Below are positions 1-42,654 of a stretch of DNA of 47,077 nt, piece by piece. Origin of the DNA: a virus. Its lineage: Duplodnaviria > Heunggongvirae > Uroviricota > Caudoviricetes. Positions within the stretch are counted from its first letter, which is position 1; the number at the start of each line of letters is the position of its first letter. The DNA is taken from IMG/VR virus record IMGVR_UViG_2541047907_000002, positions 1 to 47,077 of that record; one strand, given 5' to 3'. The notes under the pieces were generated by a model. The model did not search any database. It had not been told where the DNA came from and saw nothing but the letters and a program-made list of their open reading frames with translations. The position numbers were made by a program, and so were the translations under genes.

Positions 1-1131
1 TCAAATGACCAGTTTTTTCCACTCCTTACCGCGTGCATCGTTGTAAATATCAGTCATTTTTTGATTCGAATGACCTAGCAAAATTTGGGTATCAATTCCC
101 TGCTCTCTGAACAATCGCTCCGATAAAGATCTCTGCTCATGGAAAGAGGGTGGGGTGCCATTAGCACGCCAGTTGTAATCCACAGAATCCCGCGCTTTTT
201 TAAATGCAACGGTTAACGTTGCTGGCTTAACCATCCCGCCGCGCTTAGCTGTCCCTTTCGCGTGATGATGGTGCAATAGCCACGGACTAAGAACGCAATC
301 GCGACAGGATGACACCACATCATCCAGGGTGAGATTTAATTTATCGCAACGCAGAACCAGAGGGATGGCAATCCGGGTTCCTGTTTTTTGCTGTTCGACA
401 TGAAGATAACCATCCCGGATATCCGAAAATTGCATTTTGCAAATATCTGAAAGGCGCTGGCCTGTCACCAGTGCCAGCAGCATGCCGCGCTGTAAAAAGT
501 AACCATCCTTTTCCGCTGCGTTATAAATCATCATCCACTCATCAAAAGTCAGTCGCTGTCTTGATATCCGCACCTGCGGTTTTTTTGCCGATTCTGCAGG
601 GTTAAAGCCTGGCGGGACATCGCCTGTTTGCTGAGCTTCCCGGAAAACATCGATCAGCACCTTCCTGAAAATTTGTCCCATTCTGTTATGTCCTCTGGCC
701 TTGTACTCTTCCAGCACCGATACCACATCTTTTACGGTTATGGCATCTAACGGTCTGGTGCCAAAACGTTCATCAAATACCCTGAGAGGGGCCGCTTTTT
801 GTTTCAGCGTGTTGAGTTTGATCTCTCCGTTTTCATATCTTTCCTGTTGAATTTTTCTGTAATTATTCAGAAAAATGGAAACAGTTGATGAACCGCCGGT
901 ATCATTAATAATTTTCTCCTGCAGACTGAGCATTTGTTCCATTTGCTGCCTGGCAAGACGGCTGTTCGCTTCTGCTGCAATAGTTTCTGCCAGTTTCTGG
1001 TCAATACTGCCGAGACCGTGATTTTTGCCTGTTATGGGATGCCTGTAACGCCAGTAAACTTTGTTATTTCTTTTGTCAAAATATGGAGATAATCCCGGAA
1101 CATCGGTTTTATATTTTCGCGGGCGCGCCAT
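1..1131 (-). CDS. int: Phage tyrosine integrase (site-specific recombinase)
   Basis: 376 aa ORF at the prophage edge; C-terminal LLGHSNQKMTDIYNDA segment fits the tyrosine recombinase catalytic region (H..Y); start overlaps the upstream small basic ORF, the usual xis-int arrangement. Confidence 0.85.
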   Translation of the reverse strand: MARPRKYKTDVPGLSPYFDKRNNKVYWRYRHPITGKNHGLGSIDQKLAETIAAEANSRLARQQMEQMLSLQEKIINDTGGSSTVSIFLNNYRKIQQERYENGEIKLNTLKQKAAPLRVFDERFGTRPLDAITVKDVVSVLEEYKARGHNRMGQIFRKVLIDVFREAQQTGDVPPGFNPAESAKKPQVRISRQRLTFDEWMMIYNAAEKDGYFLQRGMLLALVTGQRLSDICKMQFSDIRDGYLHVEQQKTGTRIAIPLVLRCDKLNLTLDDVVSSCRDCVLSPWLLHHHHAKGTAKRGGMVKPATLTVAFKKARDSVDYNWRANGTPPSFHEQRSLSERLFREQGIDTQILLGHSNQKMTDIYNDARGKEWKKLVI

Positions 1132-25247: not shown

Positions 25248-25757
25248 ATGGCAACGCAGGCGGAGGTGGCCGAGCATCTTGGTATAACTGAACGCTGGTT
25301 GCGGGATCTTCAGAAGCACCCGGGAGCGCCAAAAAATCGAAAGCGTGGTGAATACGATATTGATGCCTGGCGATATTTTTATATTTCATACCTTAAACGC
25401 AAAGGAAGAAGCGATACTGATGACGATGGAAATAGCGATTACGAAGAAAAATTACTTATTGCCAGATGGAAATTGACTGAAGAACAGGCAATAGCGCAGC
25501 AACTAAAAAATCAGGTAACCGAAGGCAAGCTCATTGATTCAGGGTTCTGCGTTTTCGCCCTCAGCAAACTGGCGATGGCATTGTCCAGTACGCTTGATTC
25601 CATTCCTTTATCCATGCAGCGACAGTTCCCGGATTTAACCCCGCGCCATATTGATCATCTGAAAACCCTTATCGCAAAGGGAGCGAATCAGTGTGCGCGG
25701 GCAGGGGATAAATTGCCGGAGTTACTCGATGAATATATCCGAACAACAGCTGAATAA
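25248..25757 (+). CDS. Terminase small subunit, lambda Nu1-like
   Basis: N-terminal HTH (QAEVAEHLGITERWLRDL) and C-terminal FCVFALSKLAMALSSTLDSIPLSMQRQFPDL closely parallel lambda Nu1 as recalled. Confidence 0.75.
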   Translation: MATQAEVAEHLGITERWLRDLQKHPGAPKNRKRGEYDIDAWRYFYISYLKRKGRSDTDDDGNSDYEEKLLIARWKLTEEQAIAQQLKNQVTEGKLIDSGFCVFALSKLAMALSSTLDSIPLSMQRQFPDLTPRHIDHLKTLIAKGANQCARAGDKLPELLDEYIRTTAE

Positions 25758-27645
25758 TATGATGGTCGCCGTCGCAACCGCATTACAGCCACTGATAAGG
25801 GCACTGCCGGTGACGCCGGTTGAGTGGGCTGATCAAAATTATTATCTGCCGAAAGAATCGTCATACGGTGAGGGGGAATGGAAAACGCTGCCGTTCCAGG
25901 TCGCCATCATGAACAGCATGGGGAATGATCAGATCCGTACTGTTAATCTGATTAAATCGGCGCGTGTGGGTTACACCAAAATGCTGCTGGGCGTGGTCGG
26001 GTATTTTATTGAGCATAAATCCCGTAACAGCCTGCTCTTCCAGCCGACAGATTCTGCAGCTGAAGATTTCATGAAAGCGCATGTGGAGGCAACGCTACGG
26101 GATGTCCCCTGCCTTAAAGCGTTATCGCCATGGCTGGGAAGAAAGCACCGCGATAATACACTCACCCTGAAGCGTTTTTCCTCCGGCGTGGGGTTCTGGT
26201 GCCTGGGCGGTGCTGCAGCTAAAAACTACCGTGAAAAATCTGTGGATGTGGTCTGCTATGACGAACTCTCCTCGTTTGAACCGGATGTGGAAAAAGAAGG
26301 TTCGCCGACGCTGCTTGGCGATAAACGTATCGAAGGCTCGGTATGGCCTAAATCCATACGCGGCTCAACGCCAAAAATTAAAGGCTCCTGCCAGATTGAG
26401 AAAGCCGCGAATGAATCTGCGCATTTCATGCGGTTTTATGTCCCTTGCCCTCATTGCGGGGAGGCCCAGTATCTGAAGTTTGGCGATGATGCGACGCCGT
26501 TTGGCCTGAAATGGGAGAAGGGTAAACCGGAAACGGTGTATTACCTGTGTGAACATAATGGCTGTGTGATCCGCCAGTCAGAACTTGACCAGAGCGGCGG
26601 ACGCTGGATTTGTGACAATACCGGGATGTGGACGCACGACGGCCTGGCATTTTACAGCGCCGGTGATGAGGAGATGCCGCCACCGCGTTCAATCACGTAC
26701 CACGTGTGGACAGCGTACAGTCCGTTCACCACCTGGGTACAGATTGTTTATGACTGGCTGGATGCGCTGAAGGATCCGAACGGTGTTAAGACGTTTATTA
26801 ACACCACGCTCGGGGAGCCCTATGAAGAGGCTGTGGCAGAAAAACTGAGTTTTGAGTTGTTACTGGAAAAGGTCTGTCACTATGGCGCGCAGGTTCCCCT
26901 GCGGGTGGTTTACCTGACCGCAGGGATCGACTCCCAGAAAGACCGCTATGAAATTTATGTCTGGGGCTGGGCTCCCGGCGAAGAAGCCTTTCTGATTGAC
27001 AAGCAAATTGTCATGGGGCGACCGGAAGATGAGGACACCCTTAAACGTGTTGATGCGGTGATCAGGAAAAAATACCGCCATGCTGACGGTACTGAAATTT
27101 CCATTTCCCGCGTCTGCTGGGATACCGGTGGTATCGACCAGGACATTGTGTATCAGCGTTCCAGAAAACACGGCACTTTTTTTGTACTTCCCATTAAAGG
27201 TGCATCGGTGTACGGCAAGCCGGTGATCACCATGCCCAAAAAGCGCAACCAGCGTGGTGTGTTTCTGTGTGAGGTTGGCTCCGATACCGTCAAGGAAATG
27301 CTGTACGCCCGTTTTGCCCTGCCGGTGGTTTCTGCCAGTGAAGCCGCCCCGTATACCTTCCGTTTTCCGGATAACCCGGACATTTTTTCGGAAGAAGAAG
27401 CACGTCAAATCGTGGCGGAAGAACTGGTGGAAAAGGTGGTTAATGGCAGGGTGAAACTGCTGTGGGATAAAAAAGGGCGACGCAATGAAGCCCTCGACTG
27501 CCTGGTATATGCCTATGCTGCCCTGCGTATTTCAGTACAACGATGGCAACTGGACCTTGAGGCACTGGCCCGGGCACGAAGAGACGAGCAGGATGAGGAT
27601 GATATGAGTCTGGAAGAGATCGCGGCTGCACTGAGTGGAGGATAA
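25729..27645 (+). CDS. Terminase large subunit, lambda gpA-like
   Basis: Extended similarity to lambda A recalled (e.g. KRFSSGVGFWCLGGAAAKNYREKSVDV, CPHCGEAQYLKFGDD); start ATG 25729 overlaps the small subunit gene. Confidence 0.9.
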   Translation: MNISEQQLNNMMVAVATALQPLIRALPVTPVEWADQNYYLPKESSYGEGEWKTLPFQVAIMNSMGNDQIRTVNLIKSARVGYTKMLLGVVGYFIEHKSRNSLLFQPTDSAAEDFMKAHVEATLRDVPCLKALSPWLGRKHRDNTLTLKRFSSGVGFWCLGGAAAKNYREKSVDVVCYDELSSFEPDVEKEGSPTLLGDKRIEGSVWPKSIRGSTPKIKGSCQIEKAANESAHFMRFYVPCPHCGEAQYLKFGDDATPFGLKWEKGKPETVYYLCEHNGCVIRQSELDQSGGRWICDNTGMWTHDGLAFYSAGDEEMPPPRSITYHVWTAYSPFTTWVQIVYDWLDALKDPNGVKTFINTTLGEPYEEAVAEKLSFELLLEKVCHYGAQVPLRVVYLTAGIDSQKDRYEIYVWGWAPGEEAFLIDKQIVMGRPEDEDTLKRVDAVIRKKYRHADGTEISISRVCWDTGGIDQDIVYQRSRKHGTFFVLPIKGASVYGKPVITMPKKRNQRGVFLCEVGSDTVKEMLYARFALPVVSASEAAPYTFRFPDNPDIFSEEEARQIVAEELVEKVVNGRVKLLWDKKGRRNEALDCLVYAYAALRISVQRWQLDLEALARARRDEQDEDDMSLEEIAAALSGG

Positions 27646-27648
27646 GTG

Positions 27649-27858
27649 ATGATTTATACACATGAGATGCTTTGCGAAGCGCGTCGTGCGCTGCATGAGC
27701 TGATGATCGGGCGTGCGGTGGCTTCTGTCAGTAAGAACGGACGACAGGTGCAGTATTCGCGGGCGACGATTAATGAGTTGCGGCGATATATAGAGGAAAT
27801 TGAAAGCGCACTTGGAATATCCGGTCGTCGCCGTGGCCCTGCAGGAGTACGACTGTGA
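27649..27858 (+). CDS. Head-tail joining protein, lambda gpW-like
   Basis: ARRALHELMIGRAV...RRRGPAG parallels lambda W; GGAGGA upstream. Confidence 0.7.
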   Translation: MIYTHEMLCEARRALHELMIGRAVASVSKNGRQVQYSRATINELRRYIEEIESALGISGRRRGPAGVRL

Positions 27859-29426
27859 GCGGGGAACTGGTGGATCTTCATGGACAGCCTCTGCGGCAGA
27901 GTCTGGGATATTCCGGTGGTGGCTCCGGATTCGGAGGGCAACTGGCTGAATGGTTGCCAGCACCGGAAAGCGCCGATGTGGCGCTCTTACCTTCCATTCA
28001 GCTGGGTAACGCCCGTGCGGATGATCTGGTCCGTAACAACGGTATTGCCGCAAATGCTGTGGAAATTCATAAAGACCATATCGTCGGCCACATGTTTCGC
28101 CTGAGCTACCGACCCAACTGGCGCTGGCTGGGGATGTCAGAAGCTGATTCGCATGCCTTTATTGAAGATGTGGAGGCGGCGTGGATGGAATATTGCGATC
28201 CGGTGTTTGGCTCGATGGATGTGGAAGGGCGTCGCTCGTTTACCGAATTTATTCGTGAAGGGGTGGGCGTTCATACGTTTAACGGTGAAATTTTTGTCCA
28301 GCCCGTATGGGATACGGAATCCACGTCATTATTCAGAACAAAATTCAAGACCATCAGTCCGAAGCGCGTCAGTACGCCCGGTTATGGCATCGGCGATCGT
28401 TTTATGCGTGCCGGAGTGGAAATCAACCGTCACGGAAAGGCGATGGCTTATCATGTTCAGGACGATGACTGGCCTGGCTACGGTGTCAGCAACTGGACAC
28501 GGATTGCGGCGACGCTGCCCTCCGGGCGACCGGGAATGATCCATGTGTTTCAGCCGCAGGAGGACGGGCAGACGCGCGGGGCCAACCAGTTTTATTCCGT
28601 GATGGAGCGCCTCAAGATGCTCGACACATTGCAGGCCACGCAACTGCAGTCGGCGGTGGTGCGGGCGATGTATGCCGCGACGATTGAATCCACACTGGAT
28701 TCGGAAAAAGCATTTGAATATATCGCCGGGGTGGGAGATGGCGGTAAAAATCCCCTGAACACCATCATGAAAGGCTATGCGCGCTATTACGCCACCAACA
28801 CGGTCAGGATGGGTGGGGTTCGTATTCCGCATCTTTATCCGGGGGATTCACTGAATCTGCAGACAGCACAGAATGCGGATAATGGTTTCTCTGAACTGGA
28901 AAAGGCGCTGTTACGTTACATTGCTGCCGGGCTGGGCGTGTCCTATGAGCAGCTCTCCCGTGATTATTCACAGGTCAGTTATTCCAGTGCCAGAGCATCC
29001 GCCAATGAGTCGTGGCGGTATTTTATGGGGAAACGAAAATTTGTGGCCAGCCGGCTGGCGTCACAGATGTTTGCCTGCTGGCTGGAGGAAGCCCTTATTC
29101 GCGGAGTGATCCGCCCACCGAAATCCCGTTTTTCATTCTGGGAGGCCCGTTCCGGATGGTGTCGTGCCGAGTGGATTGGTGCCGGTCGCATGGCGATTGA
29201 TGGCCTTAAGGAAGTGCAGGAAGCGGTGATGCGTATTGAAGGTGGTTTAAGCACGTACGAGAAAGAGCTGGCTCTGATGGGCGATGACTATCAGGAGATT
29301 TTCCGCCAGCAACTGCGTGAAAGCCAGGAGCGACAGGCGGCTGGTCTTCCCCGCCCCATCTGGATAAAGGATACGTTTCAGCAGCAGATCCGACAGACAA
29401 CGGGAGGAAAAGGCGATGCGTCGTAA
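27855..29426 (+). CDS. Portal protein, lambda gpB family
   Basis: 523 aa; GTGA overlap with the W-like gene; position and recalled similarity to lambda B. Confidence 0.9.
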   Translation: MSGELVDLHGQPLRQSLGYSGGGSGFGGQLAEWLPAPESADVALLPSIQLGNARADDLVRNNGIAANAVEIHKDHIVGHMFRLSYRPNWRWLGMSEADSHAFIEDVEAAWMEYCDPVFGSMDVEGRRSFTEFIREGVGVHTFNGEIFVQPVWDTESTSLFRTKFKTISPKRVSTPGYGIGDRFMRAGVEINRHGKAMAYHVQDDDWPGYGVSNWTRIAATLPSGRPGMIHVFQPQEDGQTRGANQFYSVMERLKMLDTLQATQLQSAVVRAMYAATIESTLDSEKAFEYIAGVGDGGKNPLNTIMKGYARYYATNTVRMGGVRIPHLYPGDSLNLQTAQNADNGFSELEKALLRYIAAGLGVSYEQLSRDYSQVSYSSARASANESWRYFMGKRKFVASRLASQMFACWLEEALIRGVIRPPKSRFSFWEARSGWCRAEWIGAGRMAIDGLKEVQEAVMRIEGGLSTYEKELALMGDDYQEIFRQQLRESQERQAAGLPRPIWIKDTFQQQIRQTTGGKGDAS

Positions 29427-31032
29427 TTTATCGCATATTGCCGCCATGGCATTTAATGAGCCGCTTTTACTGGAGCCCGCCTATGCGCGGGTTTTCTTTT
29501 GCGCGCTGGGTAAAGAGATAGGGGCCGGCAGCCTTGCCGTTCCTCAGCAGGCTGTTCAGCTTGATGCTGATGGTATGCAACTGGCTGTGACTGACTATAT
29601 GGCGGGCGGTCAGCGTCCGGCAAAGAGTTACCAGGTGAAGAATGGCATCGCCATTCTGCCGGTGAGCGGCACGCTGGTGCATAAACTGGGTACCCTGCGG
29701 CCTTACTCCGTCATGACCGGCTATGACGGCCTGACGGCCCGCCTTCAGATGGCGGTGAATGATCCGGATGTGCGCGGCATTTTGCTGGATATCGACAGCC
29801 CGGGCGGTCAGGCTGCCGGGGCGTTTGACTGTGCTGACATGATTTACCGCCTGCGGGAACAGAAGCCCGTTTGGGCGCTGTGCAATGACATGGCCTGTTC
29901 AGCCGCCATGTTGCTGGCGGCAGCCTGTACGCGTCGGCTGGTCACGCAGACAGCAAAAATTGGTTCGATTGGTGTGATGATGGCGCACACCAGTTACGAG
30001 AAACAACTGGCACAAGAAGGGGTGGACATCACGCTGATTTACTCCGGGCGGCACAAGGTTGACGGCAACAGTATTCAGGCATTGCCGGCAGGTGTGCGTG
30101 CGGATTTCCAGCGCCGTATTGATGAGGCCCGCCGGATGTTTGTCGACAAGGTGGCACGTTATACGGGGCTGAGCGCTGAGGCGGTGATGAATACCGAAGC
30201 AGCCGTTTATGACGGTCAGGCAGGCATTGATGCTGGCCTGGCTGATCAACTGATTAATGCTGCAGATGCCGTTGAAGTGATGGTTTCTGCACTGAATGAA
30301 TCTGTTACACAGGAGGAAACGATGACAGTTAAAAATCTGACCGTTGCTGAAGCGGTGGTCCAGGAAAATCAGCGCGTGATGGGGATCCTGAATTGTCAGG
30401 AGGCGAAAGGACGCGAACAACTGGCGAAGATGCTGGCAGGCCAGCTAGGAATGACGGTTGAGCAGGCGAAAACGTTGCTTGCAGCAGCGCCGGTTGCCGG
30501 TACTGACAGCACGGGTGATCAGATTATGGCGCTGCCGGAAGCAAAGGGGCGTGAGCAACTGGCACAGATGCTGGCAGGTCAACCGGGGATGACGGTGGAG
30601 CAGGCGAAAGCGTTTCTGGCAGCAGCTCCTGCTGCCGGTGCTGCAGGCACAGGCGATCAGATTATGGCGCTGCCGGAAGCTAAAGGGCGTGAACAACTCG
30701 CACAGGCGCTGGCTGAACAGCCGGGAATGACCGTTGATCAGGCAAAAACGTTACTGGCGGCGGTACCGGTTGCTGGTTCTGCAAGTGTCGGCGAGCAGAT
30801 TATGACACTGCCCGAGGCGAAAGGGCGCGAGCAACTTGCACAGGTGCTGGCAGAACAACCGGGAATGACGGTGGCGCAGGCGAAAACGTTGCTGGCAGCC
30901 GCACCGGCGGCATCACAGCCGTCACAGGAAACACTTTTTGATCGCTTTATGGCACAGCATGCCGCCAGTGCGGTTTCCGGAGGCGGAACTGCCGGGCACG
31001 GAGAAGAAGATCTGCTGATGAGTATGCCGTAA
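29416..31032 (+). CDS. Prohead protease / scaffold protein, lambda gpC-like (S49 peptidase family) with repeated C-terminal domain
   Basis: N-terminal ClpP/SppA-like region; C-terminus has four tandem ~46 aa repeats (LPEAKGREQLAQ.LA.QPGMTV.QAK.LLAA.P). Confidence 0.85.
   Translation: MRRNLSHIAAMAFNEPLLLEPAYARVFFCALGKEIGAGSLAVPQQAVQLDADGMQLAVTDYMAGGQRPAKSYQVKNGIAILPVSGTLVHKLGTLRPYSVMTGYDGLTARLQMAVNDPDVRGILLDIDSPGGQAAGAFDCADMIYRLREQKPVWALCNDMACSAAMLLAAACTRRLVTQTAKIGSIGVMMAHTSYEKQLAQEGVDITLIYSGRHKVDGNSIQALPAGVRADFQRRIDEARRMFVDKVARYTGLSAEAVMNTEAAVYDGQAGIDAGLADQLINAADAVEVMVSALNESVTQEETMTVKNLTVAEAVVQENQRVMGILNCQEAKGREQLAKMLAGQLGMTVEQAKTLLAAAPVAGTDSTGDQIMALPEAKGREQLAQMLAGQPGMTVEQAKAFLAAAPAAGAAGTGDQIMALPEAKGREQLAQALAEQPGMTVDQAKTLLAAVPVAGSASVGEQIMTLPEAKGREQLAQVLAEQPGMTVAQAKTLLAAAPAASQPSQETLFDRFMAQHAASAVSGGGTAGHGEEDLLMSMP
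30400..30935 (+). repeat. Four in-frame tandem repeats of ~138 bp inside the gpC-like gene
   Basis: Repeat units begin with GA(G/A)GC(G/A/T)AAAGG(A/G)CG(C/T)GA(A/G)CAACT and each ends with CAGATTATG(G/A)C(G/A)CTGCC(G/C). Confidence 0.6.
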
Positions 31033-31071
31033 GCGGTATCCGTGATTCAGATAAATCAGGAGACTGAAAAA

Positions 31072-31407
31072 ATGATTAAAACCACCACAGAAAAGCGCGC
31101 GGATGTGCACATTTTTGCCGGAAGCGAGCCGGCGCATACCGCAACCGCCACCAGTGGTATCAGTGCCGCCACACCTGCACTGACGCCACTGATGCTGGAT
31201 GATGCCACCGGCAAACTGGTGGTCTGGGATGGTCAGAAAGCCGGAACGGCTGTGGGTGTGCTGGCTCTGGCGCTTGCCGGGTCCGAGTCCACACTGACGT
31301 ATTACAAAAGCGGTACGTTTGCCACTGAATCGCTGGTCTGGCCTGATTCGGTGGATGCGGTGAAAAAAGCCAACGCATTTGTGGGAAGTGCCATCAGTCA
31401 CGCCTGA
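31072..31407 (+). CDS. Head decoration protein, lambda gpD-like
   Basis: PAHTATA...ATPALTPLMLD...KLVVWDG...YYKSGTF parallels lambda D; AGGAGA upstream. Confidence 0.8.
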   Translation: MIKTTTEKRADVHIFAGSEPAHTATATSGISAATPALTPLMLDDATGKLVVWDGQKAGTAVGVLALALAGSESTLTYYKSGTFATESLVWPDSVDAVKKANAFVGSAISHA

Positions 31408-31476
31408 TGGTGAAGTGATTAACTGAACAAACGGGGCGCGATGCGTCCCGTTTGTGTTTCTGAAGGATAATATATA

Positions 31477-32505
31477 ATGGGGTTATTTACCACGCGTCAG
31501 TTGCTCGGCTACACCGAGCAGAAAGTGAAATTTCGTGCGCTGTTTCTGGAGCTTTTTTTTCGCCGCACGATCACTTTCCATACTCAGGAAGTGATGCTGG
31601 ATAAAATTACCGGCAAAACGCCGGTTGCGGCATATGTCTCTCCGGTGGTGTCAGGCAAAGTGCTGCGCAGCCGTGGCGGTGAAACCCGCGTGTTACGTCC
31701 CGGTTATGTAAAACCAAAACACCGCCTGGATTATCAGCAGGCGGTGGAACGTCTGCCGGGGGAAGATCCGGCCCGTCTTAATGACCCGGCCTACCGTCGC
31801 CTGCGTATTCTGACTGACAACCTGAAGCAGGAAGAGCAGGCGATTGTGCAGGTGGAAGAAATGCAGGCGGTCAGTGCCATTCTGCAGGGTAAGTACACCA
31901 TGAGCGGTGAGCAGTTTGAGACGGTGGAAGTGGATTTCGGACGTTCTGCTGCCAATAACATTACACAGGCTGGCGGTAATCAGTGGTCACAGCAGAACGC
32001 TGACACCTTTGATCCAACGCACGATCTGGATGCGTACTGCGATTTTGCCTCCGGGACCATCAATATCGCGATTATGGACGGCACGGTCTGGCGTTTGCTG
32101 AATGGTTTTAAACTGTTCCGTGAAAAACTGGATATCCGCCGTGGTTCAAAATCGGAACTGGAAACCGCGCTGAAAGACCTGGGCTCCGTGGTCTCTTTTA
32201 AGGGGTATTACGGCGATCTGGCTATTGTGGTGGCGAAAACAGCTTATGTCGATGAAAACGGGGATGAACAGCGTTATCTGCCGGAAGGTACACTGATTCT
32301 GGGGAATACTCAGGCGGAAGGCGTCCGTTGCTATGGGGCCATTCAGGATAACCAGGCGCTGAGTGAAGGGATCACCGCTGCAGTTCGTTATCCAAAACAC
32401 TGGCTGGAGGTGGGTGATCCTGGTTGCGAATATACCATGACGCAGTCTGCGCCGTTGATGGTGTTGCCGGATCCGGATGTGTTTGTGGTGGTTCAGGTGA
32501 AATAA
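31477..32505 (+). CDS. Major capsid protein, lambda gpE-like
   Basis: 342 aa; extensive similarity to lambda E recalled (YVSPVVSGKVLRSRGG, GYVKPKH, QVEEMQAVSAILQGKYTM). Confidence 0.9.
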   Translation: MGLFTTRQLLGYTEQKVKFRALFLELFFRRTITFHTQEVMLDKITGKTPVAAYVSPVVSGKVLRSRGGETRVLRPGYVKPKHRLDYQQAVERLPGEDPARLNDPAYRRLRILTDNLKQEEQAIVQVEEMQAVSAILQGKYTMSGEQFETVEVDFGRSAANNITQAGGNQWSQQNADTFDPTHDLDAYCDFASGTINIAIMDGTVWRLLNGFKLFREKLDIRRGSKSELETALKDLGSVVSFKGYYGDLAIVVAKTAYVDENGDEQRYLPEGTLILGNTQAEGVRCYGAIQDNQALSEGITAAVRYPKHWLEVGDPGCEYTMTQSAPLMVLPDPDVFVVVQVK

Positions 32506-32555
32506 GGTCAGGCGGGATATTCCCGCCTTTTTCTTTAGCGCACGGGAGAGATGTG

Positions 32556-32921
32556 ATGACAAAAGAGCAGATGACCGAACGTTTGCAGGAACTGGCAGTG
32601 ATCCTGGGGCGTGAAGCAGATATTTCAGGTTCAAAGGCCGATCTTGAGCAGCGTCTGGCGGAATGGGAAGAGGAGGCCGCTGGCTTCGATGGGGAGGAGA
32701 CAGGGGCGGAAGAGGTGGACAACGACGTATCCGGTGACGGGATGCATTCTGAGCGGGAACTCGTTCGGGTGCGCATGCTGAAAACGGCACATATGCCTGC
32801 CTGTGATGCCGTGACGGGGAAAATGCTGATGTTCGCCCGGGCCTCCAGTGTTGTGCTGGTTAATGAAGCTGCAGTTCCTGCATTGCTGGCGGACGGTCTG
32901 GCAGAAAAAATTCGGGAGTAA
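32556..32921 (+). CDS. DNA packaging protein, lambda FI-like
   Basis: Position after the capsid gene; GGGAGAG upstream of ATG 32556; C-terminal region loosely parallels lambda FI. Confidence 0.55.
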   Translation: MTKEQMTERLQELAVILGREADISGSKADLEQRLAEWEEEAAGFDGEETGAEEVDNDVSGDGMHSERELVRVRMLKTAHMPACDAVTGKMLMFARASSVVLVNEAAVPALLADGLAEKIRE

Positions 32922-35588: not shown

Positions 35589-36477
35589 TCTGTCCGCGAT
35601 ACCAGTACCGGATGCGGTAGAGGTGCCGGACACCGCTGTGCTGGTCACTCAGATAGTGGCGAAATATCAGGAACTGGACACGTTGTTTTCGGCCCTGGTG
35701 GAATCCGATCCGGCGTATAAATGGGCAGAGGCACTGGCTTTTCGGGTGGCGCTGATGCGCCAGCAGGTCAATGATGCTGTCCGGGGGGTACTGCTTGCGA
35801 GCGCCCGGAAGAACGACCTGGATCAGATTGGTGCGAATTTTCAGGTGCAACGTCTGGTGATTACCCCGGCAGACGACAGCACTATTCCGCCCATGCCTGC
35901 GGTATATGAAGATGATGATGCTTTTCGCGAACGTATCCAGTTGTCATGGGCACGACTCAGTACCGCGGGCGCGAAAAACGCCTACCACTATTTTGCACAG
36001 AGTGCTGATCCTGATGTGCTGGATGTGAAAGCCTACGGGCCGGAAACGCATTCACAGGAAGGGCGTGTTTTTCTTTATGTGTTATCGCGAACCGGAAACG
36101 GTACGGCATCACAACCCCTGCTGGATAAGGTGGCAGCGTCAGTCAATGATGATGAAATCCGGCCTCTGACGGATTTTGTCAGCGTCCGTGCGGCAGACAT
36201 TATTCCCTACGATGTGGTGGCAGATATTCAAATTCCCTACGGGCTGGATGGTGAACTGGTGATGAATAATGCCCGCCAGGCGCTGCAGACATATACCGAC
36301 AGTGTTCACCGGATTGGTTCTGTGGCGTCCTGCTCCGGCATGGACGGAGCCCTGCATCAGACGGGTGTGATTACAGTGGTGCTGAAATCACCGGCCAGCG
36401 ATATTGTTCCGGTAATGGGACAGGCACCATGGTGTCGCTCAGTCACGCTGAACAAGTTGGAGACAACTGATGAATGA
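35563..36477 (+). CDS. Baseplate protein J, P2 gpJ-like
   Basis: LDQIGANFQVQRLVITPADDSTIPPMPAV parallels P2 J; probable TTG start at 35563 preceded by GAGGAG. Confidence 0.8.
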   Translation: MATSQAIIDLSAIPVPDAVEVPDTAVLVTQIVAKYQELDTLFSALVESDPAYKWAEALAFRVALMRQQVNDAVRGVLLASARKNDLDQIGANFQVQRLVITPADDSTIPPMPAVYEDDDAFRERIQLSWARLSTAGAKNAYHYFAQSADPDVLDVKAYGPETHSQEGRVFLYVLSRTGNGTASQPLLDKVAASVNDDEIRPLTDFVSVRAADIIPYDVVADIQIPYGLDGELVMNNARQALQTYTDSVHRIGSVASCSGMDGALHQTGVITVVLKSPASDIVPVMGQAPWCRSVTLNKLETTDE

Positions 36478-39400
36478 CAAAATCAGAAGCATACTTCCGG
36501 TCAGCGCCAGCCTGGCAGAGCGGGTAGTGGACAGTACTGCCGGTGATATGCTGGCGGAAATTGCGGTCTGTCTGATCCGCTATGTAAAAAATCCCGACTT
36601 ATGTCCGGCGGAATTGCTGCCATGGCTGGCCTGGGAAATGGCAGTGGATACCTGGAGTGAGCACTGGACTGAGGCGGAAAAACGGGCGGCGATTAAACGT
36701 GCTGCTTACATCCACCGTCACAGGGGGACAAAAGCGGCGCTGATGGCGTCGCTGGCTGACAGTCCCTTCCGGTCGCAGATTGTTCAGTGGTATGAGCTGA
36801 ACCCACCCGGAGAACCGTATACCTTTCGTCTGAACGTGGAGCAGAAGGATTTACCGGTGCTGATGAATGATCATCAGGATCTGAAGCATGCGGTGCTCCG
36901 AGCCAAAAATCTGCGCAGCTGGTTCAGTGTTCATATTTACGGACGCCATAGCGGTGAGGTGTATGGCGCGGGATATATTTCGTCCACCGAAATACTAAAG
37001 AATCGCCTTAATGCCCGCAGTATCCTTCCGGCAGAAAGCGACGTGATGCTTCTTCCCGGGGAGCAAAAAGTGATCCCGGTAACCATTTTGCCGGCAGGGG
37101 CAGATGACAAAAGCTTTACGGCCACAGTAACCAGTGACACAGTGGTCACAGCCACGGTACGGGATGGCGCACTGCATCTTCACGGGCTGCGCCGGGGACA
37201 GAGTAGCGTGGTGCTGACCACTGTGAATGGCGTGGCGGCAACGGTGACCGTTCGCGTGGTGGCGGAGGCTCGGTTCATGGTTCGTGTCGATGACGCGAGT
37301 AAGCCGCTGTTTTTTGCTCATGCAGACGGATTCACCATTGATTATGGCGATGGTGTCGATTCCTGCGACTATACCCTTCAGGATGAGGGAGTATATACCA
37401 CCCGAGAGATTGTTGCAGGCACTGTGATGAGCCTGACTGTGAAGGGATGTGACAGTCTGTGTTTTTACCGTTCCGGCAGAGCAAGAAGTGCCCCTTTACA
37501 GGAACTGATCAGGATAAGCAGTGATCGCAGCAGTATGTATCAATTTGCCTGGGGGCAGGCAGACCTGAATAAAATTCATCCCGGCGCACTGGGTGATTTG
37601 CCGAATGTCACAACATATGCCTATGCCTTCAGCAATTGTTCGTCCCTGTCTGCGCTGCCAGATGCCCTGTTTTCCGGTTCACCGGCGGTGACTTCATTTG
37701 CGCATGTGTTTTATGGTTGCACTTCACTGGCAACACTACCGGGCGATCTGTTCAGTGACAATCCGCAGGTCACCACGTTTGTCAGTGCCTTTCAGGGCTG
37801 TACCGCGCTCGGGGAAATTCCGGCAGGGCTGTTTGACAGCGCAGGCCTGGTTACCACGTTCGCCTCCCTGTTTTACGGTTGCACGGGCCTGACCCGTCTG
37901 CCGGGAGGCCTGTTCCGGGCGGCGGTCTCTGCCACGGATTTTGCCAGCCTGTGTTACAGCTGCACGGCGCTGACGGCGTTACCTGCCGGACTGTTCACGG
38001 GAGCGGTGAGTGCGAAAAGTTTCAGTATGGCCTTTGCATACTGTCGCCAGCTGGCAACGCTGCCGGATGACCTGTTCAGCGGGCTCGGGCAGGTGACGGG
38101 ATTTTATCAGACCTTTCAGTACTGTCAGGCACTGACCACGCTGCCGTCACGACTGTTTTATGACTGCGTGTCGGTGATCTCGTTTGGTGGTACTTTTCGT
38201 AACTGTACCAAACTTACCACCCTGCCGGAGGATGTGTTTGTCATCCGTGACGGCACATCACAGATAACTCTGGCTGAGGTGTTCAGTTACTGCACGGCGC
38301 TGACTGCGGTACCGACGGGACTGTTTGAGCCGGTGAAGGCGCGAATCAGCAATGCCGGTTACGCCTTCATGTATGCGGGCCTCACCCGTGTACCGGCCCG
38401 TCTGTTCGCGGGTGCGGTGAACTGCACCACGTTCAGTCAGGTTTTTGCCAACTGTTCAGCCCTGGAGGAAACCGGCGATGAGGTATTTGTCGGGTGTGAT
38501 GCTGCTGTGAGTGCGGCGCAGGCGTTTTACAGATGCAGAACGCTGAGCACGGTCGGGGCTGGGCTGTTTACGGACTGTGGACGTATAACAAATTTTCTGG
38601 GGGCATTCAGTCTCTGTTATGCGCTGTCGTCCATACCGGAAAATCTGTTTGAGGGATGCAGCGCGGCCACGAATTTTTATGAGACGTTTTACAGTTGTCA
38701 GGCGCTGGTCGCCCTGCCGGATTCCCTGTTTGCTGCCTGTGAAGGTACCGATAACATCAGCCTGTATGGCACATTTGCATACTGCGCAGCACTGGTGTCG
38801 ATTCCTGACGGATTATTCAGTGCCATCAGGAGCCGTATCAGCACGGCTCAGGTGGCATTTCGAGGCTGTTCATCACTTACCACAGTCCCTTCCGGTCTGT
38901 TCGCGGATGCCACAAACTGCGGGAATATCGACTCTGCTTTTCTGGACTGTACGGCACTGAGCACTGTGGGCGATGAGGTGTTCAGCGGATGTACTGCCCT
39001 GACGTCTGCCCATAACGTTTTTTCGGGGTGCCTGACCCTGACAACCACGGGTGACCGTCTTCTGGCCGGCTGTACGGCACTGAAATATGTGAGCGGGGTG
39101 TTTGAGGGATGCAGTGCCCTGACCTCCACGGGAGGGGCGCTTCTGTCCGGTTGTACGTCACTGACATCCGCGACGGGCCTGTTCAGCGCGTGCAGGCGTC
39201 TGGTCACGGTCCCGGAAGACACGTTCCGGGACTGCGGGGCGCTGATAAGCGCCGGGGAAACCTTTGCCGGGTGCACATCCCTGACCGGAATACCGGATGC
39301 GTTGTTTGCGGACTGTCCTTCACTGAAATCGGCGGAAAAGATGTTTTATGGCTGCAGCGCACTGGTCAGCGTGCCACCGGATATTGTGAAGCCAGGCGAC

Positions 39401-39619
39401 ACAGCCGGGTCAGTGAACTGGATGTTCCGTGAATGTTCATCGCTGGCGGTGGATATCAACACTCTCTTCACGCAGACCTTTCCTGAAGGTTACTCGCTGG
39501 CGTATCTCTTCGACGGGTGCAGTAACGTGACGGGCAGCAAAAGTGAATTTCTGGCGAAGTTTCCGTCACCGGTGACTTCAGCATATTGTTTTGATGACTG
39601 TCCGTTACTGACGGACTGA
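36470..39619 (+). CDS. Tail protein I (P2 gpI-like N-domain) fused to an Ig-like domain and a long array of ~23-residue leucine-rich-repeat-like units
   Basis: 1049 aa; N-terminal ~180 aa resemble phage tail protein I; a Big_2-like segment follows; the remaining ~680 aa are roughly 25-30 repeats of pattern F-x2-C-x2-L-x2-(L/I)P-x2-LF. Confidence 0.7.
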   Translation: MNDKIRSILPVSASLAERVVDSTAGDMLAEIAVCLIRYVKNPDLCPAELLPWLAWEMAVDTWSEHWTEAEKRAAIKRAAYIHRHRGTKAALMASLADSPFRSQIVQWYELNPPGEPYTFRLNVEQKDLPVLMNDHQDLKHAVLRAKNLRSWFSVHIYGRHSGEVYGAGYISSTEILKNRLNARSILPAESDVMLLPGEQKVIPVTILPAGADDKSFTATVTSDTVVTATVRDGALHLHGLRRGQSSVVLTTVNGVAATVTVRVVAEARFMVRVDDASKPLFFAHADGFTIDYGDGVDSCDYTLQDEGVYTTREIVAGTVMSLTVKGCDSLCFYRSGRARSAPLQELIRISSDRSSMYQFAWGQADLNKIHPGALGDLPNVTTYAYAFSNCSSLSALPDALFSGSPAVTSFAHVFYGCTSLATLPGDLFSDNPQVTTFVSAFQGCTALGEIPAGLFDSAGLVTTFASLFYGCTGLTRLPGGLFRAAVSATDFASLCYSCTALTALPAGLFTGAVSAKSFSMAFAYCRQLATLPDDLFSGLGQVTGFYQTFQYCQALTTLPSRLFYDCVSVISFGGTFRNCTKLTTLPEDVFVIRDGTSQITLAEVFSYCTALTAVPTGLFEPVKARISNAGYAFMYAGLTRVPARLFAGAVNCTTFSQVFANCSALEETGDEVFVGCDAAVSAAQAFYRCRTLSTVGAGLFTDCGRITNFLGAFSLCYALSSIPENLFEGCSAATNFYETFYSCQALVALPDSLFAACEGTDNISLYGTFAYCAALVSIPDGLFSAIRSRISTAQVAFRGCSSLTTVPSGLFADATNCGNIDSAFLDCTALSTVGDEVFSGCTALTSAHNVFSGCLTLTTTGDRLLAGCTALKYVSGVFEGCSALTSTGGALLSGCTSLTSATGLFSACRRLVTVPEDTFRDCGALISAGETFAGCTSLTGIPDALFADCPSLKSAEKMFYGCSALVSVPPDIVKPGDTAGSVNWMFRECSSLAVDINTLFTQTFPEGYSLAYLFDGCSNVTGSKSEFLAKFPSPVTSAYCFDDCPLLTD

Positions 39620-41181: not shown

Positions 41182-42654
41182 ATGTCCGGACTACATGGTG
41201 TTGAAACCATTGAACTGACGACAGGAACGGTTGCCGTGCAGACCATCTCCACGGCAGTGATTGGTCTGGTGGGGACAGCACCGGATGCTTCCGGTGGTGT
41301 GTGTGCTTCCGGTACTACCGGATCGTGGCTGCTGGGAACGGCGCTGGATTTTACGGCGAAACAGGAAGGGCGGGCCGGCAATAAGATTTCGGTGGTTGCC
41401 GTCGCGGCCACAGAACAAAGTGCGCAGACTACGGCCACGCTGGAAGGTACGACCCTGACGATAACACTGGGGACGGATGAACACAGCCAGGTTAACGCGA
41501 CTGTGGACCGTGTGACTGAAGTGGTGAATGCGCTGGGTGATTCACCTGTGACGGCGGCGGTCAGTACCCTGAATGCAGGAGGCGCTGAAAATCATGTGGT
41601 GCCGCCGTTCAGCCTGACGTTATCCGGCGGGGAAGATGAGGCGTTCCCGGTTAATACACCGGTGGTGGCAGGGGCCATTACTCAGGCGGGAAAACTGGGG
41701 GCCGCCGGGACACTGTATCCGGCTCTGCGAGATATTTTTGACCAGACCGGTGCTCTGGTGATTGTGGTGCGTGCGGAAAGTAAACCGAAAGCGAAAGAGG
41801 CTGAACAACGTGCGGCGGTGATTAAGGCCATGGAAGCACTGACGGAAAGCAAGGGAAAAACAGGCTACCAGCCGCGCATCCTCATTGCCACGGGTTACAG
41901 TGAGGATGATGGCGTGGCAAAGGCGCTGGAAACGTATGCCGCGAAGCTGCGGGCCGTCGCCTATGTTGACTCGCCATCAATGGCAACGCCGCAGGATGTG
42001 GTTCAGCGTCGCGCATCCTTTGGCGGTCGCGTGGAGCTGCTGCGTCCGCGAGTGTCAGTAACGGATGACAGCGGGCAGACGGTATTTCGTCCGTATTCGG
42101 CACGCGCTGCCGGGCTGCGTGCCCGTATTGATTACGAAAAAGGATGGTGGTGGTCCAAATCAAACCAGGACGTGATGAATATCACCGGACTGGAGCAGGT
42201 GGACACATTTATTCTCGGGGAGCAGAACTGCACGGCCAACCTGCTGAACATGGAAAACATCTCCACCATTATCCGGCATGACGGTTTTAAACACTGGGGT
42301 AACCGCCTGTGTTCATCCCACAGCCAGCTGCGTTTTGAGTCTGTGCGCCGTACGGCTGATGTGATTGAGGACAGCATTCAGGAGGCCATGCTGCCTTATG
42401 TCGATCGTCCGCTTGATCGGGATGTGGCGGACGACATTCTTGGCAGTATTAATGCGTATATGCGTCAGCTTAAAAATCTGGGAGCGATCCACGGTGGCAG
42501 CGCCTGGCTGAATGATGAACTGAACACGGCAGAAAACCTGGCAGCCGGGTGGTTGTATATCGACTATGACTTCGGACCAAAGTCGCCACTGGAGCGTCTG
42601 ACGCTGCGGACAATGATCAACAATAAACTGGCACAGGAGGAACTGACAGTATGA
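41182..42654 (+). CDS. Contractile tail sheath protein, P2 gpFI-like
   Basis: 490 aa; GLRARIDYEKGWW, IRHDGFKHWGNRLCS and WLYIDYDFGPKSPLERLTLR parallel P2 FI as recalled. Confidence 0.85.
   Translation: MSGLHGVETIELTTGTVAVQTISTAVIGLVGTAPDASGGVCASGTTGSWLLGTALDFTAKQEGRAGNKISVVAVAATEQSAQTTATLEGTTLTITLGTDEHSQVNATVDRVTEVVNALGDSPVTAAVSTLNAGGAENHVVPPFSLTLSGGEDEAFPVNTPVVAGAITQAGKLGAAGTLYPALRDIFDQTGALVIVVRAESKPKAKEAEQRAAVIKAMEALTESKGKTGYQPRILIATGYSEDDGVAKALETYAAKLRAVAYVDSPSMATPQDVVQRRASFGGRVELLRPRVSVTDDSGQTVFRPYSARAAGLRARIDYEKGWWWSKSNQDVMNITGLEQVDTFILGEQNCTANLLNMENISTIIRHDGFKHWGNRLCSSHSQLRFESVRRTADVIEDSIQEAMLPYVDRPLDRDVADDILGSINAYMRQLKNLGAIHGGSAWLNDELNTAENLAAGWLYIDYDFGPKSPLERLTLRTMINNKLAQEELTV

Follow-up and report, generated by a model that had tools for sequence, protein, structure and literature searches.

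In the prophage sequence analysed here, the 47,077 nucleotides (nt) of IMG/VR virus record IMGVR_UViG_2541047907_000002 (Caudoviricetes; hereafter the window), the C-terminal part of a lambda gpC-like prohead protease gene is built from four tandem 138-bp repeats lying in the reading frame of the gene. On balance, we consider it probable that these repeats are four copies of a conserved helical module shared by the protease and by a predicted scaffold nested within the same gene, with each unit engaged in binding.

A single strong array was detected by Tandem Repeats Finder at 30399-30907 (period 138, 3.7 copies, 79% matches, 1% indels, score 578). Its period is divisible by 3, the array is in frame with the host open reading frame (ORF) at 29416-31032, and self-identity at a lag of 138 reaches 0.73, where other in-frame lags give 0.31 +/- 0.03 and 2000 codon shuffles never exceed 0.39. 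We set the unit boundaries by anchoring on the recurring peptide EAKGREQLA, which divides the array into four units of 46 amino acids (aa) corresponding to residues 328-373, 374-419, 420-465 and 466-511; the fourth has only a 33-aa core in common with the others before giving way to a unique C-terminal tail. The four tandem ~138 bp in-frame repeats that a first-pass annotation of this DNA had placed at 30400-30935 are indeed present, and its coordinates were right to within a few bases. The elements of the gene are laid out as follows:

29416..31032, plus strand: gpC-like prohead protease/scaffold gene, 538 aa (ORF list, Pfam, PHROG)
29851..30285, plus strand: S49 (SppA/ClpP-fold) peptidase domain, residues 146-290 (Pfam coordinates)
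30311..30316, plus strand: Shine-Dalgarno (SD) sequence AGGAGG, 5 nt before an internal ATG
30322..31032, plus strand: predicted nested scaffold ORF (equivalent of Nu3 and phage 21 gp6), 236 aa, 24.1 kDa, isoelectric point 4.8
30343..30396, plus strand: non-repeated N-terminal scaffold helix, VAEAVVQENQRVMGILNC, conserved in the family as ENxR(I/V)MGILNC
30397..30534, plus strand: repeat unit 1, QEAKGREQLAKMLAGQLGMTVEQAKTLLAAAP followed by the linker VAGTDSTGDQIMAL; core 78% identical to Tri1 of phage 21
30535..30672, plus strand: repeat unit 2 (EAKGREQLA anchoring, Tandem Repeats Finder)
30673..30810, plus strand: repeat unit 3 (EAKGREQLA anchoring, Tandem Repeats Finder)
30811..30909, plus strand: repeat unit 4 (33-aa core; the full 138-nt frame would end at 30948)
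30910..31029, plus strand: unique C-terminal tail (…ETLFDRFMAQH…GG…DLLMSMP), from alignments

Over their cores the window units are 78-91% identical in pairwise comparison, at a spacing of exactly 46 aa, and pairs of units differ at 27-51 of 138 nt, chiefly at third codon positions. By the Nei-Gojobori method, the 33-aa core shows 0.7-1.3 synonymous substitutions per site (dS) and a nonsynonymous-to-synonymous ratio (dN/dS) of 0.05-0.16, while the 13-aa linkers are looser, at 0.27-0.45. The units are old duplicates, and the values for the cores imply that each has been maintained as protein by purifying selection. An assembly artefact is excluded as the source of the window array, because the units differ from one another to this extent and because a gene of the same length is found in complete Escherichia coli genomes, where it recurs at 95-97% identity, with the best 40 listed matches all spanning 1616-1617 nt and 105 complete genomes covering at least 80% of the gene query.

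The protein that carries the array is 55-67% identical to lambda C and to its homologues in phage 21 (gp5), Gifsy-1, N15 and phi80, and the closest isolated phage is phage 21, with 74% nucleotide identity across the 5' 64% of the gene. It matches PHROG 53, 'head maturation protease' (1e-211), and, in its N-terminal part, Pfam Peptidase_S49 (PF01343; 6.1e-34, 117.6 bits against a cut-off of 24.9, residues 146-290), and a sequence search of the PDB matched SppA (3rst/4kwb, 4e-16) over residues 76-289. S162 lines up, in the alignment to SppA, with the serine in '...smaaSgg...', which we take to be the SppA nucleophile, and this residue is invariant among the six homologues aligned.

That alignment of six proteins (the window, phage 21 gp5, the Gifsy-1 gpC homologue, lambda C, N15 gp5 and phi80 gpC) identifies the repeat unit, with consensus [DEPQ]EAKGRExLAxxLAxxPGMTVExAxxxLAAAP, as the invariant block of the family C-terminus. 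Within the unit, E329, A330, G332, E334, A337, L340, A341, G345, M346, V348, A351 and L355-P359 are invariant. The unit is flanked by two further conserved elements, namely the upstream helix at 30343..30396, with invariant columns E317, N318, R320, M322, G323, I324, L325 and C327, and the C-terminal tail, which is single-copy in every homologue whatever the number of units and follows the family motif …F/L-D-R-F/L-M…LL(M/N)(S/T)xP, with G523, L534 and P538 invariant.

When a profile built from the four window units was run against 1.84 billion cluster representatives (E <= 1e-3), 390 proteins matched, nearly all with one unit and a minority with 2-3; a single unit is also the common state across species representatives. 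Among the listed matches 400-550 aa long, the unit mostly lies some 80-100 residues before the C-terminus, and the four long ones that were read (P0113, P0127, P0146, P0255) prove to be S49-type proteases. Many of the remaining matches, at about 100-220 aa, are standalone proteins, and distant alpha-proteobacterial homologues combine an acidic spacer with one unit. In lambda, N15 and phi80 a spacer of 45-60 aa rich in Ala, Thr and Gln precedes the single unit, and the distance from the internal methionine described below to the conserved helix is 46-57 aa in single-unit lineages as against 12-14 aa in those with at least two. Two groups of matches stand apart. Standalone proteins of ~160-230 aa from Bradyrhizobium and Afipia (P0081, P0085-P0090, P0108-P0111, P0224) contain two units (…ERRRLARIMGTPEAAGREALA… and …ILALPEAKGREGLAVTLATTTDMTVDQIKAALAAAP) and end in a different C-terminus (…WGASLKSRGMK); we presume that they represent scaffold genes of their own in unrelated prophages. 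One Gifsy-1-like protease/scaffold entry (P0226) shows systematic Ala to Val, Thr to Ile or Met, and Pro to Leu or Phe replacements, the pattern expected of C-to-T converted (bisulfite-type) reads, and for this reason looks like a database artefact.

Upstream of the array, the ATG at 30322 encodes Met303 in frame with the protease, and the duplex of its AGGAGG with the anti-SD sequence is predicted at -10.3 kcal/mol, the same value as at the gpC start itself. This ATG aligns with the annotated ribosome-binding site (RBS) and start of gene 6 in both phage 21 and N15, as well as with a GGAGG and ATG at Met309 of lambda gpC. A GGAG-type SD sequence followed by ATG is kept in every lineage (147 loci) while the residues encoded there vary (TQEET, TKENA, RGGT, SGGR and others), which points to selection on the start signal itself. 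The resulting 236-aa ORF matches PHROG 8399 'head scaffolding protein' (8e-51) and PHROG 8940 'capsid assembly protein' (4e-43), each in 4 stretches. The sequence hence predicts a nested scaffold that consists mostly of repeats, and as the start lies 5' of the array the repeats fall in the part common to protease and scaffold. The first-pass annotation had proposed, from the lambda precedent, an in-frame scaffold within the 3' part of this gpC-like gene, and had advised looking for an internal start with a ribosome-binding site upstream of the repeats; the AGGAGG, the 5-nt spacing and ATG 30322 agree with that proposal in that the start signal is present and conserved, with the product itself being predicted.

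The conserved start also bears on how these genes are annotated. RefSeq begins lambda nu3 (NC_001416, 2333-2938) at gpC Met239, giving 201 aa, at a position occupied by Ile in the window, phage 21, N15 and phi80 and preceded by a weak SD sequence (-6.9 kcal/mol). The family-conserved lambda start is gpC Met309, with GGAGG at -10.8 kcal/mol and a product of 131 aa and 13.4 kDa. Given the poor conservation and weaker SD sequence of Met239 relative to Met309, the RefSeq annotation of lambda nu3 may be too long. In Prokaryotic Genome Annotation Pipeline (PGAP) annotations of the prophages related to the window, the nested scaffold gene is missing and 'S49 family peptidase' alone is called.

To describe the predicted fold of the scaffold, we ran AlphaFold2 (AF2) on the 236-aa sequence with a 22-sequence alignment and obtained an all-helical model with a mean predicted local distance difference test score (pLDDT) of 73, units at about 74-88, and a predicted template modelling score (pTM) of 0.29. 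Each unit is modelled as a short helix (DQIMAL), a turn at EAKG, a helix (REQLAQMLA), a hairpin at GQPGMT and a further helix (VEQAKTLLAA). The N-terminal scaffold helix spans residues 8-23 at a pLDDT of about 85-88, the tail forms a helix at TLFDRFMAQHAA with low confidence after it, and a model of one unit plus tail agrees with that of the whole scaffold. The low pTM speaks for units with no fixed placement relative to one another, and the scaffold is accordingly modelled as helical 'beads on a string'. Foldseek searches of the PDB with the whole scaffold and with the one-unit model gave no match at E<1 (best 4.8 and 6.7), such searches being insensitive for small domains, and over the PDB and BFVD searches the best viral matches were the C-termini of other S49 prohead proteases, at E of about 1. 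Pfam T2SSK scores 29.7 bits when summed over the four units (whole-protein cut-off 24.2), with no single stretch passing, and the helix-hairpin-helix proteins among the Foldseek rows (pol beta, XPF-ERCC1, RuvA) are all sub-threshold at E>4; we treat a helix-hairpin-helix resemblance of the units as a lead only.

The first-pass annotation had further suggested that the number of repeats could vary between related phages, and comparison of homologues shows 1, 2, 3, 4 or 5 units. A protein homologue search returned mostly truncated 'partial' entries unfit for counting units, and copy numbers were therefore drawn from DNA loci and complete genomes. A large share of the entries P0001-P0111 are labelled 'S49 family peptidase, partial' and come from short contigs, and several of the aligned ones begin or end within the repeats, which suggests that the repeat often breaks short-read assemblies; such assemblies may also collapse inside it. 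One unit is found in lambda, N15, phi80 and many enterobacterial prophages, and three in phage 21, Gifsy-1, Trabulsiella and Providencia. In the clade of the window, IMG/VR loci encode proteins of 446, 492, 538 and 584 aa, equivalent to 2, 3, 4 and 5 units, with 4 by far the commonest.

Complete E. coli genomes cover part of this range, with 5 units in STEC005, 3 in PapRG-04-4 and 4 in VG35A2 and C5. The five units of STEC005 can be told apart by 5-52 nt differences; within its 584-aa protein (L148) the first three differ by merely 5-12 nt, which suggests a recent expansion in the STEC005 lineage. Nine complete genomes of Shiga toxin-producing E. coli (STEC; H127-H135, H188-H193) align over their full length, in one piece of 903 nt, to a 5-unit query; their sources are goat, mutton, beef and pig, and STEC005, the one inspected, is from China. 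When the span between the flanks of the array was measured in complete genomes, most rows gave about 1150 nt (4 units), five of these STEC strains among the rows listed gave 1290 nt (5 units), and six listed genomes gave 1142 nt, ~10 nt below the usual 4-unit span. By analogy with a 535-aa IMG/VR variant (L050), a small in-frame deletion is the likely origin of the 1142-nt spans. A capsid protein of identical accession (WP_000522659.1) adjoins a 3-unit gene (L149) and two 4-unit genes (L150, L151), and one capsid protein hence works with 3 or 4 units.

Within one IMG/VR sublineage (L032-L037, L044, L046, L047, L035), 2, 3, 4 and 5 units occur in near-identical head modules, whose flanks, over about 4 kb, mostly lie within 0-3 nt of one another, the exception being L033 with 210 upstream differences. 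The assemblies are drafts in which no nucleotide separates the internal units (100% identity), and the series could reflect either very recent gain and loss of units or the collapse of identical 138-bp units in draft short-read assemblies; we do not rely on it for that reason. On a longer timescale, unit-by-unit comparison of phage 21 with Gifsy-1 finds their second units 84% identical to each other, from which sequence comparison indicates a shared ancestral triplication. Units 2-4 of the window are most alike one another and less like Tri2 and Tri3, which implies that they expanded or were homogenised separately, within their own clade.

Taken together, the favoured explanation would run as follows. 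The lambda genes C and Nu3 share a reading frame where they overlap (Shaw and Murialdo 1980, as cited in PMC8508860), gpC is described as a protease (Medina et al. 2010), and Nu3, whose interaction partners are E, B, C and Nu3 itself, is cleared before packaging (PMC3224144). The window gene would likewise yield two products, the 538-aa S49 prohead protease and a 236-aa scaffold from 30322 that is almost all repeats, the latter being the more abundant, and the C-terminus they share would, by analogy with lambda C/Nu3, bring both into the assembling procapsid. Each unit, its helices followed by a flexible Ala/Gly/Thr linker, would bind independently, its partner being the gpE-type capsid protein, further scaffold chains or both, and a chain of four would make a multivalent 'beads-on-a-string' scaffold; we infer a modular scaffold domain here, as the first-pass annotation had done. 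Extra units would substitute for the long low-complexity spacer lying between the internal start and the unit in single-unit phages, and whole 138-bp blocks would be gained or lost via unequal recombination or slippage.

Several points weigh against this explanation. We found no experiment or structure that gives the unit a role in any phage, translation from 30322 is a prediction from sequence, the PDB sequence search matched the SppA protease domain alone and returned no solved gpC or Nu3, and Foldseek (PDB, BFVD) found no significant match to the coat-binding domains of P22, phi29 or other scaffolds. The true capsid anchor could instead be the tail (DLLMSMP), which is just as conserved, leaving the units with another role, and since 2-5 copies are tolerated, extra units might be nearly neutral filler as opposed to additive binding sites.

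Another reading, rather unlikely in our judgement, makes the units mainly a length or volume spacer (a 'ruler' or filler) that could be exchanged for the Ala/Thr/Gln-rich or acidic spacers of single-unit relatives, and places capsid binding in the first conserved helix and one unit and/or in the tail. The inverse relation of spacer length to unit number, the acidic spacer with one unit in alpha-proteobacterial homologues, and the tolerance of 2-5 units beside near-identical head genes and of 3 or 4 beside an identical capsid protein accession are all in keeping with it. However, a pure spacer would not hold the unit cores under such strong constraint while the linkers relax, and predicted scaffolds can be as short as 131 aa or as long as 282 aa, such that length is not tightly fixed. 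A more adaptive reading, quite unlikely as we see it, would take unit number as a tunable valency of capsid-binding modules per scaffold chain that alters nucleation rate, assembly fidelity or capsid size, or as an aid by which the protease/scaffold escapes host defences that sense prohead proteases; if so, the rapid gain and loss of whole units would be adaptive and not neutral. An interaction of a cyclic-oligonucleotide-based anti-phage signalling system (CBASS) sensor with a phage prohead protease is reported in work cited in PMC12409349.

The protease activity itself suggests another possibility, in which the gpC-like protease finds a cleavage site at regular intervals along the repeat and cuts the scaffold into ~46-aa peptides that can exit the procapsid before DNA packaging. 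In lambda the protease is gpC and Nu3 is degraded before packaging (PMC3224144, Table 2). The junction of linker plus DQIMAL-PEAKG does recur once per unit, but it is unlike the annotated processing site of the lambda portal (…SLREYA|GYHGGG), and scaffolds with a single unit are also removed. As we also know of no cleavage specificity for the gpC-like protease family, we hold this possibility very unlikely. Extremely improbable, finally, is that the repeat works at the level of nucleic acid, through protein-binding sites, RNA structure or a recombination hotspot, or that it is an assembly or duplication artefact. A recent phage 21 record does put pattern-matched CII sites within gene 6, and collapse or mis-assembly could explain the draft sublineage described above, with its identical internal units in 2-5 copies. 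Yet an Rfam scan of 29000-32000 matched no family, the CII-site pattern TTGYN6TTGY has no match in the repeats (the whole window holds 2, both elsewhere, against 10.9 expected), and of three promoter-like matches in a promoter and terminator scan of 29000-32800 none lies inside the repeats. The clustering of unit differences at third codon positions, with dN/dS far below 1, and the recurrence of the 4-unit gene, its window units all distinguishable, in about 100 complete genomes largely refute both forms of this explanation.

The repeat-bearing gene, whose start overlaps the portal gene stop by 11 nt, sits in a head module with the following neighbours:

27855..29426, plus strand: portal gene of the lambda family (Pfam Phage_portal_2, 8e-95)
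31072..31407, plus strand: gpD-like head decoration gene (Pfam HDPD, 8e-23), equal in length to the annotated 336-nt gene in E. coli genomes
31477..32505, plus strand: gpE-like major capsid gene, the presumed scaffold partner (Pfam Phage_cap_E, 4e-66)

The order portal, C, D, E is that of the canonical lambda-type head module and, with the S49 domain and the PHROG 53 match, upholds the earlier assignment of the host gene as a lambda gpC homologue. Directly 3' of the major capsid gene a GC-rich hairpin and T run occupy 32510-32528, and N15 and mEp237 have annotated rho-independent terminators at the matching place. The prophage as a whole is a mosaic (seen at 1-1131, minus strand, and at 25693-32505, 36470-39619 and 41182-42654, plus strand), with a lambda-type integrase and a lambda-type head yet contractile-tail genes. 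Among the tail genes, one encodes a sheath (Pfam Phage_sheath_1/1C) and another a protein of 1049 aa whose P2 gpI-like N-terminus is combined with a BspA-type leucine-rich-repeat region, and the lambda-type head with its repeated scaffold is thus joined to a myovirus-type tail.

Our literature search found no paper discussing the repeats and no structural mapping of the capsid-contacting region in lambda Nu3 or gpC. Together, these phages form a natural dosage series of 1-5 copies of one conserved module, usable to probe binding and scaffold valency in T=7 lambda-type heads, and in three complete genomes an identical capsid accession stands beside 3-unit and 4-unit genes.

Among known systems, the nearest is gene 5/gene 6 of phage 21 (M81255; OL657228), which is alike in the gene, its position, the nested start with an annotated RBS and the tandem unit in the shared C-terminus. 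In M81255, gene 6 already bears repeat features named 'Tri1 box', 'Tri box' and 'Tri3 box', together with the remark 'function unknown; putative', and the repeat arrangement has therefore been on record since the 1990s. The phage 21 protein is 67% identical overall to that of the window; it differs in having three units, irregularly spaced (50 and 47 aa) and 56-59% identical in pairwise comparison, where the window has four at regular spacing. The proteases of Gifsy-1 (Salmonella), Trabulsiella and Providencia carry tandem units like those of the window, but three in number and more diverged, and the Gifsy-1-type gene is annotated as a prohead protease only. Lambda C/Nu3 shares the S49 domain, gene order, internal SD sequence and ATG, the ENxR(I/V)MGILNC helix, the unit and the C-terminal tail motif, but its unit occurs once, behind a spacer of about 48 aa. 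Scaffolds of the P22 and phi29 type, which bind coat protein through a helix-turn-helix motif, offer a functional analogy, with small helical hairpin modules in a flexible, acidic, helical scaffold (PMC11922011), although each of their chains has just one such motif, their genes do not lie within that of a protease, and they show no detected match in sequence or fold. The window array is, in sum, nothing categorically new: it is the four-copy case of the repeated-scaffold arrangement of phage 21, set within the nested design of lambda C/Nu3.

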